Shown: piece by piece, positions 2,493 to 56,648 of the stretch | How positions within the stretch are numbered: the stretch's first letter is position 1 | How the letters are laid out: each line of letters starts with the position of its first letter | Origin: a phage | Length of the DNA stretch: 64,000 bases | Sequence record: PZ452582.1 | Reading direction: 5' to 3' (one strand) | Made by a program: the position numbers and the translations under genes | The notes under the pieces: model-generated | Databases searched by the model: none | Told to the model about the DNA's origin: nothing | What the model saw: the letters and a program-made list of their open reading frames with translations, nothing else

Positions 2493-2532
2493 TAGTAGTA
2501 TATTAAATCCACGAATTAAAACAGGAAATAAG

Positions 2533-2706
2533 ATGAAATCATATACTCAATTTTTAAATGAAGCGGTGTTAAATGAAGCATCTAGCACCGAAATTCAAGC
2601 TGTCGCAAAAGCAGCCATTGCAGCGGGTAAATATTCTTATAAAGATGCTTCTGATGAATCGCGATTCCAGTTCGCACGCGACATGAAAGCGGAAGGATTT
2701 ACGTGA
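2533..2706 (+). CDS. small protein (57 aa) with capsid-targeting-sequence-like N-terminus (candidate internal protein)
   Basis: N-terminus MKSYTQFLNEA resembles T4 internal-protein CTS MKTYQEFIAEA; SD agga; late promoter upstream. Confidence 0.5.
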   Translation: MKSYTQFLNEAVLNEASSTEIQAVAKAAIAAGKYSYKDASDESRFQFARDMKAEGFT

Positions 2707-2718
2707 AATGCAGTTAGT

Positions 2719-3006
2719 ATGGCCTGGAAAAGTTTAGTTGCTACTGGAGCTGCTTTTGCAAAGGCTTCAGGTAAACCTGCTCCTAAGGCTGACCCTAAAG
2801 CAGCACAAGAAAAAAATATTGCTAAAGGAATTATCTCTAGGTATGAAGCAATTCTTAAAGAACTTTTGATAATTAAGACCGAAGGCCAGAAACTTGCGCG
2901 AGCTCATAGTTTCAAAGATAACCCACATGCTCACTCTCTTGAGTATGTTGAAGACATCCAAAAAATTATTAAAGACCGCATTTGGTCTGCTAAACAAATC
3001 AAATAA
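2719..3006 (+). CDS. hypothetical protein (95 aa), Lys/Ala-rich N-terminus
   Basis: ATG ORF ending just before a terminator hairpin. Confidence 0.55.
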   Translation: MAWKSLVATGAAFAKASGKPAPKADPKAAQEKNIAKGIISRYEAILKELLIIKTEGQKLARAHSFKDNPHAHSLEYVEDIQKIIKDRIWSAKQIK

Positions 3007-3013
3007 CATTCTT

Positions 3014-3042
3014 AGCCCCGACCAAAAGGTTGGGGCTTTTTG
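3014..3042 (+). terminator. rho-independent terminator (second copy of the 2455 hairpin)
   Basis: agccccgacc-aaaa-ggttggggct plus TTTTT; near-identical to 2455-2482. Confidence 0.7.
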
Positions 3043-3133
3043 GTATCTAGGCCTTTCCGGGCCTCTCTAGACATCATTTAGTTTCTACCCTTTATAATAT
3101 ATTATCCTATCTTTTAATTGCCCCTCCCTGCCC

Positions 3134-3250
3134 TAGAATTCCCCAAAACTTTTTAAAAATTTTTTCACAAAACAGTTTACATCCTTACCCTTCCATGGTA
3201 CTATACAACTATCAACTACTGATACAGAAAACAACTTGGAGAATGAAATG
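3134..3250 (+). repeat. promoter-leader cassette copy A (PeSL-like), near-identical to 46217-46316
   Basis: Shared tagaattcc...ttttcacaaaac(a/t)gtttaca...ccatggtactatacaactatcaactactgatacag...ttggagaat(g/a)aaatg. Confidence 0.7.
3176..3204 (+). promoter_or_regulatory. early sigma70-type promoter (TTTACA-17-TACTAT, A/T-rich UP region)
   Basis: GTTTAC -35 motif typical of T4 early promoters; 17 bp spacer. Confidence 0.7.
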
Positions 3251-6406: not shown

Positions 6407-7375
<969 letters not shown>

Positions 7376-7380
7376 AGTTG

Positions 7381-7409
7381 TTTACTTTCTCCTAGAATTG
7401 TGATAGTAT
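7381..7409 (+). promoter_or_regulatory. early promoter (TTTACT-17-TAGTAT)
   Basis: GTTTAC motif upstream of denV. Confidence 0.55.
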
Positions 7410-7434
7410 ATTCACAGTTACTTGGAGGGATAAA

Positions 7435-7851
7435 ATGACTCGTATTAATTTGACTTTAGTATCTGAACTTGCTGATCAACATTTAATCGCAGAATACCGT
7501 GAATTGCCACGTGTTTTTGGTATAGTTCGTAAGCATGTGGCAAATGGTAAGCGCGTTAAAGATTTTAAAATATCTTCTAAATTTATTTTAGGTTCTGGTC
7601 ATGTTACTTTCTTTTACGATAAGTTAGAATTTTTGCGAAAGCGTCAATCGGACATTATAACGGAATGCTTAAAACGCGGGTTCAGTATAAAAGATACTGA
7701 AGTTCCTGACATCAGCGATATTCCAGTAGAATGGAAAAATGATTATAATCCATGCAAATCAGCTATTAAATTGAGTCAACAACGACTTGATGAAAAAATT
7801 TTAATGAAACCACATTGGTATAAGTATTACGGTAAAAATATTTACATTTAA
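7435..7851 (+). CDS. denV: endonuclease V (pyrimidine dimer DNA glycosylase)
   Basis: 138 aa, strong similarity to recalled T4 EndoV ([17 protein letters not shown]...[10 protein letters not shown]). Confidence 0.95.
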
Positions 7852-7860
7852 AGGAAACAT

Positions 7861-8334
7861 ATGAAAACATATCAAGAATTTATCACTGAAGCAGCTATTA
7901 ATTCTCAAATTATTGCTGAATCTTTTACTGATCTTTTGAAATTTAAAAAAGGTCAAAAAATCACTGCTGTATTGGATGATGGTACAGAAGTTGAGATGGA
8001 TGTACAGGGATATAATTATGCAGTAGATGGAAAACTGTATAATAAATCTCATGCTAAATTTGATTCATTTGACGACTTTGTTAATACAGTTGAAGATGAA
8101 AAAACTCGTAGATCCATTGCAACTGGTGATGCTAAGGTTCTTATGGCACATGGTCATGAACGCATTCGCGCTAAACAGAATAAAATGGGTGAAGATAATT
8201 TTGCATTAGTTGGTTATCAATCTGGTAAACAAACTTATGGCTATCAACGTACTGCTACCATGTATAATAAAAATGGTAAAATTGCCTTTGTGAATAGTAA
8301 GGGTTCTATTCAGTACGTTAAATCGTTCAAATAA
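7861..8334 (+). CDS. internal protein with capsid targeting sequence (IPII/IPIII family)
   Basis: N-terminus MKTYQEFITEA matches T4 internal-protein CTS; sits at the IP locus next to denV. Confidence 0.7.
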   Translation: MKTYQEFITEAAINSQIIAESFTDLLKFKKGQKITAVLDDGTEVEMDVQGYNYAVDGKLYNKSHAKFDSFDDFVNTVEDEKTRRSIATGDAKVLMAHGHERIRAKQNKMGEDNFALVGYQSGKQTYGYQRTATMYNKNGKIAFVNSKGSIQYVKSFK

Positions 8335-13691: not shown

Positions 13692-13699
13692 TATAAATA
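13692..13699 (+). promoter_or_regulatory. T4-type late promoter core TATAAATA
   Basis: Exact TATAAATA 26 nt upstream of ATG 13725. Confidence 0.55.
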
Positions 13700-51968: not shown

Positions 51969-51997
51969 TTTACAAGCTGACAAGACTATGGTATAGT
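51969..51997 (+). promoter_or_regulatory. early promoter (TTTACA-17-TATAGT) with inverted repeat caagacta/tagtcttg
   Basis: GTTTAC motif; inverted repeat 51981-52003 around the -10. Confidence 0.6.
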
Positions 51998-52026: not shown

Positions 52027-52209
52027 ATGGAATTGGTAAAGGTAGTTTTTATGGGGTGGTTTAAGAATGAAAGCATGTTTACTAAAGAAACCACAATGAT
52101 GAAAGATGACGTTCAATGGGCTACTACTCAATATGCTGAAGTTAATAAAGCATTAGTTAAAGCTTTCATTGATGACAAGAAAGTATGTGAAGTAGATTGC
52201 CGAGGATAA
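52027..52209 (+). CDS. dmd: Dmd-like antitoxin (T4 61.5)
   Basis: 60 aa, near-identical to recalled T4 Dmd (MELVKVVFMGWFKNESMF...). Confidence 0.8.
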   Translation: MELVKVVFMGWFKNESMFTKETTMMKDDVQWATTQYAEVNKALVKAFIDDKKVCEVDCRG

Positions 52210-52210
52210 T

Positions 52211-52468
52211 ATGCATATTGTTTTATTTAAACCTACTCCGTATAACGTCAGGAAAAATACGCAATTCAAAGCACTTATTGCAGATACGTGGGAATTGGTG
52301 CTAGATATTCCAACAGAAGAAAGTCCTCCATTTGGTCGAGTGGAATTTATTAAGTTTGCTGTACGTCCTACGAAGAGGCAGATTCGTCAGTGTAAAAGGT
52401 ATTTTCGTAAAATCGTCAAGTTAGAGAAACAGTTTGTAACATGTGATTATGCAGAAGTTTTAAAATAG
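52211..52468 (+). CDS. T4 61.4-like small protein (85 aa)
   Basis: Position and size match T4 61.4 (reported as ToxN inhibitor TifA, from memory). Confidence 0.5.
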   Translation: MHIVLFKPTPYNVRKNTQFKALIADTWELVLDIPTEESPPFGRVEFIKFAVRPTKRQIRQCKRYFRKIVKLEKQFVTCDYAEVLK

Positions 52469-52471
52469 CTG

Positions 52472-52500
52472 TTTACTTTTGTTGGAAATTGAGATACTAT
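52472..52500 (+). promoter_or_regulatory. early promoter (TTTACT-17-TACTAT)
   Basis: GTTTAC motif. Confidence 0.6.
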
Positions 52501-52528
52501 ATAAACATAAACTACTGAGGAGATTATC

Positions 52529-52822
52529 ATGAAAAAATTTATCTTTGCTGCAATTTTTGCTTTAGCTTCTTGTGCTGCTCAGCCTGCTATGGCAGGTTAT
52601 GATAAAGATTTGTGTGAATGGTCTATGACTGCGGATCAGACTGAAGTTGAAACTCAAATTGAAGCGGATATTATGAATATCGTTGAGCGCGATCGTCCTG
52701 AAATGAAAGCTGAAGTGCAAAAACAGCTTAAGTCTGGTGGTGTAATGCAGTATAATTATGTTCTGTATTGCGATAAAAACTTTAATAACAAAAATATCGT
52801 AACCGAAATCACAGGTGAATAA
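52529..52822 (+). CDS. sp: spackle-like periplasmic protein (T4 sp / 61.3)
   Basis: 97 aa with signal peptide MKKFIFAAIFALASCAAQPAMA; matches T4 Sp size and position. Confidence 0.7.
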   Translation: MKKFIFAAIFALASCAAQPAMAGYDKDLCEWSMTADQTEVETQIEADIMNIVERDRPEMKAEVQKQLKSGGVMQYNYVLYCDKNFNNKNIVTEITGE

Positions 52823-53456
52823 TATGATTTATTATATGCACAAAAATCCACCGTTTAAATACGGTAAATTTCCTGATGCACAATGTTATAATATAACGCC
52901 TGATGAAAATAACCGTGGATATCTTATTGGCACAATTTTTGTAATTGTTAAAGATAACGAAATCGTTGCCTGGGCAGATTTTAAAGGTACAACACATGAT
53001 GTTAATCCGGTGCCTTTCACATATTACAATATAATGGATTTGGCATATGATTATAATTGGTTTAATCATGACACGTTGGCTCATATTGAAGGTGTAGGAT
53101 TTGACATCTCTTATTCTAGCTACTCATTGTGTCCTATGAGTCGGGCTCATAAAGAACCTGAATATTTTTCATTTAGGAAACGTGTAAACTTTAAACGCAA
53201 CACAGAGTATGTCGGTGGAATATTTGTTAAAGATAATCGAATTATTCGTATTAATTATCCTTTGAGCGTTAGTCAAAAAGATATTGATGTTGATTTAGAT
53301 TTCACTGAAAATAATATTAATCATATTGCTTCTGTGTATTTTGGTATCGATCACAAAATTGTAATATGTGGATATGAATTACCGTTTGAAGAACAGCCTA
53401 AAGTAAATGTTTCTATTGATGACCAAATTTTTAATGCTTTTATGAATAAAGGTTAA
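52815..53456 (+). CDS. T4 61.2-like protein (213 aa)
   Basis: Position and size match T4 61.2 (reported anti-DarT factor AdfA family, from memory). Confidence 0.5.
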   Translation: MNNMIYYMHKNPPFKYGKFPDAQCYNITPDENNRGYLIGTIFVIVKDNEIVAWADFKGTTHDVNPVPFTYYNIMDLAYDYNWFNHDTLAHIEGVGFDISYSSYSLCPMSRAHKEPEYFSFRKRVNFKRNTEYVGGIFVKDNRIIRINYPLSVSQKDIDVDLDFTENNINHIASVYFGIDHKIVICGYELPFEEQPKVNVSIDDQIFNAFMNKG

Positions 53457-53460
53457 TATG
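53409..53460 (+). repeat. direct repeat copy 1 (gene 3' end plus next start), repeated at 53767-53818
   Basis: tctattgatgaccaaatttttaatgcttttatgaata(a/g)aggttaatatg. Confidence 0.8.
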
Positions 53461-53814
53461 TATAGTTCTGAATTTTCATATTTAAAAATGGAAAAAATTT
53501 CATACGATTTTATAGATGAAAAGGTTTATTACAGTTTCCATGAACCACGTTTTAATAGTGAGGTTGGGTTTATTGTAGTAAAAGACAATTTTATTTTAAA
53601 AATATATTCAGCATTAAAGGATTTTCATTACGAAAATATTAACCTAAAATTTAATAAAGAAAACGTTCGTAATTGCGCAGTAACAATTACGGGAAATAAA
53701 GGTACATGTGTTATGCTATCTGATGAAATTAATGATTTGCTAAATGATGCAGAAAATATTACTGCACCATCTATTGATGACCAAATTTTTAATGCTTTTA
53801 TGAATAGAGGTTAA
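53458..53814 (+). CDS. T4 61.1-like protein (118 aa)
   Basis: C-terminal SIDDQIFNAFMNRG duplicates the tail of the upstream gene. Confidence 0.5.
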   Translation: MYSSEFSYLKMEKISYDFIDEKVYYSFHEPRFNSEVGFIVVKDNFILKIYSALKDFHYENINLKFNKENVRNCAVTITGNKGTCVMLSDEINDLLNDAENITAPSIDDQIFNAFMNRG

Positions 53815-53818
53815 TATG
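53767..53818 (+). repeat. direct repeat copy 2
   Basis: Near-identical to 53409-53460. Confidence 0.8.
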
Positions 53819-53980
53819 AAAACATATAAAGAATTTATCAAAGAAGATATGGTCGCTGGAGATTCAGGTGGTAGTCCTGAAAATATCTCTACTGGAACAA
53901 CGTCAGGCGCTGTAGTAAATAAAGGTCCTGAACAGATTCCTAAAAAGAAAAAAGAGGAATCTAAAGAAAAAGAAGAGTAA
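53816..53980 (+). CDS. small Lys/Glu-rich protein (54 aa) with CTS-like N-terminus
   Basis: MKTYKEFIKE matches the T4 internal-protein capsid targeting sequence; stop 3 nt before gene 61 ATG. Confidence 0.45.
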   Translation: MKTYKEFIKEDMVAGDSGGSPENISTGTTSGAVVNKGPEQIPKKKKEESKEKEE

Positions 53981-53983
53981 AGA

Positions 53984-55012
53984 ATGTCATCAATACCTTG
54001 GATTGATAATGAGTTTGCATACCGTGCATTAGCTCATTTACCTAAATTCACACAAGTAAATAATAGTTCAACTTTTAAATTACGGTTTAGATGCCCTGTT
54101 TGTGGAGATTCAAAAACCGACCAAAATAAAGCCCGTGGATGGTATTATGGTGATAATAATGAAGGAAATATTCATTGTTATAACTGTAACTATCATGCAC
54201 CAATCGGAATATATTTAAAGGAGTTTGAACCTGATTTATATCGTGAGTATATCTTTGAAATAAGAAAAGAAAAAGGTAAAAGTCGTCCAGTAGAAAAACC
54301 TAAAGAACTTCCTAAACAACTTGAGAAGAAAATAATTAAATCTCTTCCGTCATGTGTTAGATTAGATAAACTGGCGGAAGACCATCCAATTATAAAATAT
54401 GTAAAAGCTCGTTGTATTCCAAAGGATAAATGGAAATATCTTTGGTTTACAACCGAATGGCCTAAATTAGTTAATAGCATAGCACCGGGAACATATAAAA
54501 AGGAAATACCTGAGCCTCGTCTTGTTATTCCAATTTATAATGCTAATGGAAAAGCTGAGTCTTTTCAAGGACGTGCATTAAAGAAAGATGCTCCCCAAAA
54601 ATATATCACCATCAAAGCTTATCCTGAAGCAACAAAAATCTATGGAGTCGAACGAGTTAAAGATGGTGATGTATATGTTCTAGAAGGACCTATAGATTCA
54701 CTTTTTATTGAAAATGGTATAGCTATTACGGGTGGTCAATTAGACCTAGAAGTTGTTCCATTTAAAGATAGACGTGTGTGGGTTTTAGATAATGAACCTC
54801 GTCATCCTGACACTATTAAGCGAATGACTAAATTAGTTGATGCAGGAGAAAGGGTTATGTTTTGGGATAAATCTCCCTGGAAATCAAAAGATGTTAATGA
54901 TATGATTAGAAAGGAAGGTGCAACCCCTGAACAAATTATGGAATATATGAAAAATAATATTGCACAGGGGTTGATGGCTAAAATGCGGCTATCTAAATAT
55001 GCCAAGATTTAA
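53984..55012 (+). CDS. 61: DNA primase gp61
   Basis: 342 aa; N-terminal zinc finger CPVCGDS...CYNC; Toprim-like core. Confidence 0.95.
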   Translation: MSSIPWIDNEFAYRALAHLPKFTQVNNSSTFKLRFRCPVCGDSKTDQNKARGWYYGDNNEGNIHCYNCNYHAPIGIYLKEFEPDLYREYIFEIRKEKGKSRPVEKPKELPKQLEKKIIKSLPSCVRLDKLAEDHPIIKYVKARCIPKDKWKYLWFTTEWPKLVNSIAPGTYKKEIPEPRLVIPIYNANGKAESFQGRALKKDAPQKYITIKAYPEATKIYGVERVKDGDVYVLEGPIDSLFIENGIAITGGQLDLEVVPFKDRRVWVLDNEPRHPDTIKRMTKLVDAGERVMFWDKSPWKSKDVNDMIRKEGATPEQIMEYMKNNIAQGLMAKMRLSKYAKI

Positions 55013-55209
55013 ATTAACCCAACTAAAGCAAATGCTAGATCTACGAATGTATCAAGAGTAACCACTGGAATATTAATACCATGTGCAATTGCAATAGGTG
55101 ATAGAATAAAGTTCCAGAGTAAAATTCCTACCATAGCAGAAATAGTAAAAGCTATACGTTTTTTATTACCTTTTATGGCATTAACAAGTGCCATTAATTT
55201 TTGTACCAT
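55009..55209 (-). CDS. small membrane protein (66 aa) on the opposite strand
   Basis: Minus-strand ATG preceded by AAGGAGGA; hydrophobic helices; convergent with gene 61. Confidence 0.5.
   Translation of the reverse strand: MVQKLMALVNAIKGNKKRIAFTISAMVGILLWNFILSPIAIAHGINIPVVTLDTFVDLAFALVGLI

Positions 55210-55308: not shown

Positions 55309-56648
<1,340 letters not shown>

Follow-up and report, generated by a model that had tools for sequence, protein, structure and literature searches.

The T4 internal peptides II and VII are small, acidic fragments of core proteins that are retained in heads. Packaging of the T4 internal proteins has been related to a short N-terminal capsid-targeting sequence (CTS): according to a review of the work of the Black laboratory, IPIII needs no more than its first 10 residues to be packaged, with targeting achieved mainly via residues 4 and 7 and processing via residues 8 and 10 (PMC9026906). 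The major capsid protein gp23 is itself cut by the prohead protease gp21 after E65 (L63-T-E65|A66), yielding gp23* (PMC9546572). Residues 66–91 of gp23* form the N-fist, an unusual 25-residue element followed from residue 92 on by the N-arm; in the mature shell the N-fist contacts four subunits and helps to form the Soc sites (PMC9958956, PMC7136217). In the unexpanded head, gp23 residues 66–105 are disordered or flexible and lie inside the shell, where a contact with the scaffolding core was inferred as probable by the authors, and head-length mutations map to the same residues (PMC9546572).

A window of 64,000 nucleotides (sequence record PZ452582.1), corresponding to an RB32-like Tequatrovirus in the strand complementary to the T4 map, was analysed here. 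It contains a small gene, 61.1, whose anatomy, that of a capsid-arm paralogue preceded by a targeting leader, appears to be unreported.

Gene 61.1 and its neighbours

An ATG-to-TAA ORF of 54 codons plus stop occupies nt 53816–53980 (+). The earlier note had placed a 54-aa ORF immediately upstream of the primase gene, and its coordinates and its translation (MKTYKEFIKEDMVAGDSGGSPENISTGTTSGAVVNKGPEQIPKKKKEESKEKEE, exactly as quoted there) agree with our analysis. A Shine-Dalgarno sequence, GAGG, was read at nt 53807–53810 (+), 5 nt before the ATG. The ORF starts 1 nt past the stop of an upstream adfA-like gene and stops 3 nt ahead of the ATG (nt 53984) of gene 61, coding for the DNA primase (nt 53984–55012, +), which follows directly downstream.

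This is a genuine gene, orthologous to gene 61.1 of T4 (RB32 YP_802974; T4 NP_049649) and annotated everywhere as hypothetical. The protein differs from T4 gp61.1 (NC_000866) at 3 of 54 residues, and an identical copy was found in 170 blocks of public assemblies. It is matched over its full length (residues 1–54/54, E 2.4e-33) by phrog_1823; phrog_2086 was the only other profile matched, both families being listed with function unknown. No family was matched in Pfam, either by 61.1 (E up to 0.1) or by 61.1 together with four distant homologues, nor in Rfam at the 61.1 cluster. The searchable literature on gp61.1 consists of gene tables and gives no function. Gene 61.1 is known but uncharacterised. 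Few uncharacterised small genes of T4-like phages are conserved as widely, and it belongs to the best-studied phage genome.

As the earlier note had indicated, gene 61.1 is flanked by an anti-defence island, which extends upstream from dmd to the adfA-like gene (nt 52027–53814, +). Pfam and PHROG matches, together with the RB32 annotation, identified dmd (nt 52027–52209), 61.4/tifA (DUF7279; nt 52211–52468), spackle (sp; nt 52529–52822) and adfA (nt 52815–53456), all on the + strand, with functions as given in bioRxiv 10.1101/2022.04.14.488369. The second adfA-type gene (nt 53458–53814, +) codes for a 118-residue paralogue corresponding to the C-terminal half of AdfA (Pfam AdfA, E 8.8e-08). 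Both adfA products end with IDDQIFNAFMN(K/R)G, and the shorter paralogue is absent from T4 and from some contigs keeping 61.1.

Similarity of the leader with the capsid-targeting sequence of internal proteins

Codons 1–10 of 61.1 (MKTYKEFIKE; nt 53816–53845, +) form a CTS-like leader ending at a predicted prohead-protease site, I-K-E|D. This leader is identical at 8/10 residues with MKTYQEFIAE of T4 ipII and ipIII (NC_000866), as the earlier note had proposed, and equally at 8/10 with MKTYQEFITE (nt 7861–7890, +), the leader of the internal-protein gene present in the same window (nt 7861–8334, 157 residues, phrog_3155). All four CTS determinants are kept in 61.1 (Y4, F7, I8 and E10), the differences being confined to positions 5 and 9. 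T4's own 61.1 has F4, and position 4 is aromatic in every short form of the family beginning with a CTS-type leader. The processing motif of gp21 (aliphatic 8, Glu 10) is present as I8 and E10, and the I-K-E|D junction fits the gp21 rule L/I-x-E. The part of the earlier interpretation that concerned targeting and cleavage is supported by these sequence features, whereas the anti-defence effector role attached to it is not (see below).

At the nucleotide level the two leaders of the window are identical at 27/30 positions, every synonymous position included, and no other site in the window is within 3 mismatches of the 61.1 leader (0 expected in 100 shuffles). Such identity at synonymous sites suggests a recent exchange of a 30-nt leader cassette between 61.1 and the internal-protein gene. 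Covariation of the 61.1 leader with internal-protein leaders was also looked for in the first 100 kb of RB49 and none emerged, a loose leader pattern fitting there 61.1 and gp24 only.

The resemblance of 61.1 to the internal proteins IPI, IPII and IPIII thus covers a 10-residue leader (MKTY.EFI.E) with the same determinants followed by a gp21-type Glu site, a nearly identical leader DNA and, as reported below, an early-class RNA. Beyond the leader the two differ. The cargo of 61.1 is a conserved, predicted-disordered peptide of 44 residues, which in T4-type phages is not basic overall, whereas the cargoes of the internal proteins are diverse and folded; and 61.1 resides in a conserved helicase-primase interval, whereas the internal proteins are encoded at variable ip loci. 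Diverse, lineage-specific cargo at variable loci was not what we found for 61.1, whose cargo is conserved over 1398 records at a syntenic locus. With regard to the ip locus itself, the region corresponding to it in the window (nt 6881–8334, +) contains e (lysozyme), a denV-like gene (nt 7435–7851) and the single 157-residue phrog_3155 protein, the order in T4 being e - ipIII - ipII - denV.

Homology with the N-terminus of mature gp23

Downstream of the leader, three segments can be distinguished. Codons 11–36 (DMVAGDSGGSPENISTGTTSGAVVNK; nt 53846–53923, +) are a paralogue of the gp23* N-fist (gp23 residues 66–91); codons 37–46 (GPEQIPKKKK; nt 53924–53953, +) are the counterpart of the N-arm start GPAVMGMVRR and include a conserved basic patch; codons 47–54 (EESKEKEE; nt 53954–53977, +) are a variable tail, not conserved in the family. 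The description of everything beyond the leader as a Lys/Glu-rich low-complexity tail therefore applies to residues 43–54 only, residues 11–42 being conserved, Gly/Ser/Thr-rich and homologous with gp23.

The relationship was recovered by several comparisons. BLASTP aligned 61.1 residues 2–38 with gp23 57–93 without gaps (41% identity, pairwise E 7e-8). A profile of the family core, built from approximately 65 cores, matched gp23 residues 60–101 (50.2 bits, E 6e-15), and nothing but gp23 scored among 706 ORFs of the window and of the RB32 head region. When 177,635 distinct PDB sequences were searched with a short-form profile, T4 gp23 residues 59–101 were retrieved (E 2.5e-10; 6uzc, 7vs5, 5vf3 and others) with no other significant match, and a profile of the long forms described below also matched gp23 (residues 49–102). 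By these alignments, 61.1 residues 2–46 are homologous to gp23 57–101, a stretch comprising the cleavage site, the whole N-fist (25 residues) and the beginning of the N-arm. In the alignment FIKE|D (61.1) falls opposite FLTE|A (gp23) residue for residue, so that the two cleavage sites are in register, and the Gly-rich pattern GD.G...NI..G.TSGAV...GP, with the basic pair or patch that follows, is common to both proteins.

Unlike gp23, 61.1 (54 residues) is devoid of the HK97-fold body and of any match with Pfam Gp23 (PF07068), has a signature of its own (MVAGDSGG, where gp23 has EIGGDHGY) and is encoded independently, as an early gene. Some databases use names of the kind 'major capsid domain-containing protein', which reflect the similarity with gp23 and overstate the relationship; no paper discussing the similarity was found in the literature. 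The GDSGG sequence was also considered as a serine-protease active-site motif and rejected, the peptide being predicted disordered and gp23 having GDHGY at that place. By AlphaFold the gp23-like core of the family is predicted disordered (pLDDT below 50), as would be expected of an arm that orders only upon docking. Covariation of the 61.1 core with the N-fist of the same phage's gp23 was not supported, since a 5x5 identity matrix (RB32-type, RB49, JK36, 44RR and Acj9) gave no own-phage excess.

The pre-cleavage segment of gp23 also shows the pattern of the CTS. Residues 57–65 (QAFGSFLTE) have the same order of aromatic, aromatic, aliphatic and Glu residues and, with 61.1 joining both, the leader of the internal proteins may have arisen from the pre-cleavage segment of gp23 itself, or may imitate it. 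If true, and if 61.1 is a prohead-targeted N-fist copy released by the protease, mimicry of the scaffold-facing, protease-cut N-terminal segment of gp23 would offer a concrete hypothesis for the working and the origin of the CTS, and 61.1 would be an evolutionary link between the capsid propeptide and the cargo-loading leader of T4. The hypothesis bears on T4 nanoparticle engineering, where the leader is used to load cargo.

Conservation, synteny and long forms of the family

The earlier note had suggested that conservation across T4-like genomes be checked, and the ORF proved to be conserved on a wide scale: besides its match with phrog_1823 and its conserved locus, tblastn with the 61.1 core retrieved 1398 phage records (from phages of Escherichia, Klebsiella, Acinetobacter, Aeromonas, Enterobacter, Serratia, Proteus and other hosts), and an exhaustive profile search gave 51 clusters at 50% identity. 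All members share the pattern h-x-E|[DEAS]-M-V-A-G-D-S-G-G-...-I-A-S-G-.-T-S-G-.-V-...-G-P-....-K-K-K. A hydrophobic-x-Glu site stands directly before the core in nearly all of the approximately 70 family members, short or long; its Glu is all but invariant, and a hydrophobic residue almost always stands three positions ahead of the cut. Only synonymous changes separate close relatives, and the comparison with the core of Mosigvirus JK36 gave 11 synonymous versus 7 non-synonymous codon differences, purifying selection being evident from these comparisons. Copies of the T6 type (P0002 and P0004) are 62 residues long and identical through the KKKK patch, after which an apparent frameshift leads to a different tail, RNLKKKKSKNVINTLD, which shows the Lys/Glu tail to be dispensable.

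As to gene order, 61.1 is the sole gene between helicase 41 and primase 61 in the Aeromonas phages 44RR2.8t, AS-sw and ZPAH1, and it lies at the same helicase-primase position in KVP40-type vibriophages; contigs without adfA genes still keep it. Departures were seen in RB49, with two ORFs between 61.1 and the primase gene, and in Acj9, where the helicase gene is not adjacent to 61.1. A 'DNA primase-helicase subunit' fusion of 61.1 in ZPAH1 was discarded, the label belonging to a separate ORF of 149 residues. Judged from this distribution, the family is old and widespread in Straboviridae and the order 41 - 61.1 - 61 is ancestral. Since 61.1 is the only gene of the interval in the Aeromonas phages and is kept when adfA is lost, it is the ancestral resident, upstream of which the dmd-tifA-sp-adfA island was inserted. 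The earlier description of 61.1 as an extra CTS-bearing gene of the anti-defence island is at odds with its presence as the sole 41-61 gene in the island-less 44RR2.8t, AS-sw and ZPAH1.

Two size classes were recognised. Short forms have 50–70 residues, most of them beginning with M-K-(T/S)-(F/Y)-x-(E/D)-(F/L). Long forms (120–250 residues, phrog_2086 / phrog_18642) occur in Acj9 and in RB69-like Mosigvirus, KVP40-like, Aeromonas, Klebsiella and Enterobacter phages; they agree with the Tequatrovirus 61.1 in core, basic patch and locus and in having a cleavage-type junction, but carry in place of the 10-residue leader a helical, strongly conserved N-terminal domain of approximately 105 residues, found in 618 records. 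JK36, a Mosigvirus, has its long form at exactly this locus, downstream of a comparable island (dmd, spackle and an adfA-like gene), so that the 10-residue Tequatrovirus leader takes the place of a whole N-domain in a sister genus; if 61.1 is indeed targeted to the prohead, the two would be interchangeable. The AlphaFold model of a long form had a mean pLDDT of 65, with 73–92 in the N-domain. A Foldseek search with this domain gave no PDB match and no recognisable fold, and its matches in BFVD were uncharacterised or unnamed viral proteins, some of 387–913 residues.

An analogous arrangement may be seen in the giant phages phiKZ, 201phi2-1 and SPN3US, whose head proteins carry propeptides of >100 residues, with a targeting role inferred by the authors (PMC5694885), followed by a cut after Glu by a gp21-like protease, although they have no sequence relationship with the long forms. 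An N-domain without an N-fist-like core was found in a 223-residue protein of Synechococcus phage BUCT-ZZ01 (L021, nt 2498–3169; 44.6 bits), encoded upstream of the tail sheath gene and beside two spanin-like ORFs; the capsid protein of this phage, the single cyanophage examined, is likewise without a T4-type N-fist sequence. Three metagenomic relatives (P0035, P0051 and P0056) show a second leader-like motif (..MNEVSNFKQFVEGLE|ADK..) past the basic patch and an extra domain of approximately 90 residues, thus looking like a small polyprotein with several gp21-type sites. No match for this extra C-terminal module was found in the phage collection.

Expression, detection and dispensability

A sigma-70-type early promoter-like site (TTTACA-17-TATAGT with TG; nt 51969–51997, +) is located after gene 41. 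A single transcription unit made up of dmd, 61.4, sp, adfA, the adfA-like gene, 61.1 and 61 is probably driven from it, no terminator-like site being found on the + strand after it until nt 55175–55194. The T4 late-promoter box, TATAAATA, does not occur between nt 13699 and 57606. In T4, the RNA of 61.1 was classed as early, whereas a time-resolved proteome of infected cells did not contain the protein among those detected (PMC9697503 supplement); T4 gp61.1 contains a good tryptic peptide. For ipI, ipII and ipIII of T4, the RNA was early and the protein late (PMC9697503). No report of 61.1 detected in virions was found in the searchable literature, and no chain with the 61.1 sequence was present in the T4 head entries returned by a PDB search.

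Gene 61.1 of T4 is dispensable in laboratory E. coli K-12: it was scored 'Not Fit' by CRISPRi-ART (4 guides, score -0.84; PMC11879866 supplement), and it is listed as 'Non-essential', with 13/13 sites hit, in HIDEN-SEQ.

Possible role of gene 61.1

Considering the evidence together, we tentatively favour, without holding it to be probable, a reading in which 61.1 finds its way to the prohead and is processed by gp21 behind Glu10, yielding a 44-residue mimic of the capsid arm. The protein would be made from the early dmd-to-61 transcript and brought by its leader, or by the N-domain in the long forms, into the scaffolding core of the assembling prohead, where gp21 would cleave at this Glu just as it does at Glu65 of gp23. 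What is released, 61.1*, would be a disordered peptide mimicking the N-terminus of mature gp23*, and it would meet the partners of the gp23 N-terminal region: the scaffolding core before expansion and the docking surfaces of the N-fist afterwards. That a free N-fist copy is drawn inside the shell is plausible because gp23 66–105 lies there in the unexpanded head. It would act as an accessory modulator or passenger of head maturation, and neither as a structural necessity nor as a diversified injected enzyme inhibitor. A prohead-targeted copy of the N-fist released by the protease would be a new kind of head component. The internal peptides II and VII would be comparable as small gp21-generated peptides able to stay in the head, but they are fragments of core proteins, whereas 61.1* would be the product of a dedicated gene resembling the capsid arm.

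The determinants of the leader, the homology with gp23, the register of the cleavage sites and the conserved junction all speak for prohead targeting and cleavage, and we also count in favour of a head role that a head gene, 40, adjoins gene 41 in this part of the genomes. Against it stand the failure to detect the T4 protein in the proteome, the lack of a late promoter (although the RNA of the ip genes is likewise early-class), the dispensability in K-12 and the lack of covariation between core and N-fist. Moreover, the x-E junction could be conserved merely as part of the duplicated segment, and a disordered peptide of 4.5 kDa could escape through the capsomer openings, which measure 14–17 Å (PMC9546572). 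The peptide is unlikely to hold an ordered, stoichiometric place in the shell, since no such chain occurs among the T4 head entries returned by the PDB search, and the same absence, together with the dispensability of 61.1, disfavours an obligatory ordered shell component. A specific mode of action, in which 61.1 as a free N-fist copy docks on sites left without a partner or competes for the scaffold, seems to us quite unlikely as stated. The portal surroundings were named as one docking place, because the N-fists of five gp23 subunits are disordered there; if true, scaffold competition or docking by 61.1 would tune the maturation, expansion or stability of the head.

Below prohead targeting we rank a cytoplasmic capsid mimic, then an injected effector and then a primosome accessory. 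The cytoplasmic mimic, itself rather unlikely, would be an early peptide that is never packaged and serves as a decoy or competitor for a factor recognising the gp23 N-terminal region, for instance a chaperone or protease, or an abortive-infection system of the host that senses the capsid; 61.1 would then be a candidate counter-measure to capsid-sensing immunity. The position next to dmd, tifA and adfA would fit, as would the early transcription together with proven anti-toxin genes, the homology to a surface-forming and highly conserved part of the capsid protein and the lack of essentiality in K-12, and other genes of the region are named as attractive anti-toxin candidates by Srikant et al. 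(bioRxiv 10.1101/2022.04.14.488369). However, 61.1 is also kept in phages without the island, and it was not depleted in one HIDEN-SEQ conditional comparison. Its conservation goes far beyond that of typical counter-defence genes, neither PHROG nor Pfam relates it to a known anti-toxin or anti-defence protein, and the CTS-like leader and the conserved cleavage motif would be left without a role. The Gol determinant sensed by Lit, which lies just downstream of the gp23 part copied by 61.1, counts against the mimic as well; a Gol/Lit decoy role was rejected, the copied segment ending about where the Gol region begins.

The proposal of the earlier note, in which 61.1 would be packaged through its CTS, trimmed by gp21 and injected with the DNA as an anti-restriction or anti-defence effector like IPI*, appears improbable, with a cargo that is conserved, predicted disordered and capsid-derived. 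Its leader and cleavage motif do match those of the internal proteins, it is located in an anti-defence island, and leader-bearing inhibitors are still being found at the ipI locus, according to the HIDEN-SEQ preprint. Yet known internal proteins are diverse and lineage-specific, with a folded IPI* (PMC9026906), whereas the predicted 44-residue cargo of 61.1 is conserved in approximately 1400 records and is slightly net acidic in T4-type phages; its homology is to a capsid segment and to no inhibitor, the long-form relatives are without such a 10-residue N-terminal leader, and virion detection is unreported in the searchable literature. Judged by its sequence, 61.1 resembles a conserved peptide of head assembly more closely than it does an injected weapon against restriction. 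Less probable again is a function in the primosome, reflected in the position between 41 and 61, with the basic patch binding, for example, DNA or a replication protein, and with the similarity to gp23 as a relic. The synteny 41 - 61.1 - 61 in T-even, Aeromonas, Vibrio and other lineages would agree with this, as would the early co-transcription with the primase gene only 3 nt downstream. Pfam, however, gave no nucleic-acid-binding or replication family, the arrangement is broken by the two ORFs before the primase gene in RB49 and by the non-adjacent helicase gene in Acj9, the cyanophage homologue of the N-domain lies upstream of a tail sheath gene, away from replication genes, and the strict conservation of an N-fist-like sequence with its cleavage motif would go unexplained. 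Finally, it is hardly credible that gene 23 was once partly duplicated and that 61.1 is what remains, lacking translation or function: the undetected protein and the dispensability would be accounted for, but not the strong Shine-Dalgarno sequence, the tight spacing to the neighbours, the protein-level conservation across genera with its synonymous excess, or the retention of 61.1 where neighbouring genes were lost.

Other loci of the window

A further ORF with a CTS-like leader was noticed at nt 2533–2706 (+). It codes for 57 residues beginning MKSYTQFLNE|AVLNEASS..., with an aromatic residue at position 4 followed by F7, L8 and E10, and a perfect T4 late-promoter box (TATAAATA) stands at nt 2485–2492, approximately 40 nt upstream. 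Its only match is with the first 51 of 178 positions of phrog_2280 (unknown function), so that a further head-targeted protein may be represented here by a short or truncated version.

Between primase and Dam methylase, a 186-residue ORF (nt 55309–55869, +) abuts dam (nt 55869–56648), the place being occupied in T4 by a gap only. It contains a PD-(D/E)xK-like motif (FDIVIS...IIEIK) and gave sub-threshold Pfam matches with the restriction endonucleases DpnII (E 0.004; 16.9 bits, the cut-off being 23) and BanI, so that it may code for a GATC-type nuclease paired with the phage Dam. A hydrophobic ORF of 66 residues (nt 55009–55209, −), which the RB32 annotation calls 'similar to RB69ORF029w', shares 4 nt with the 3' end of the primase gene and is the sole minus-strand gene of the early cluster.
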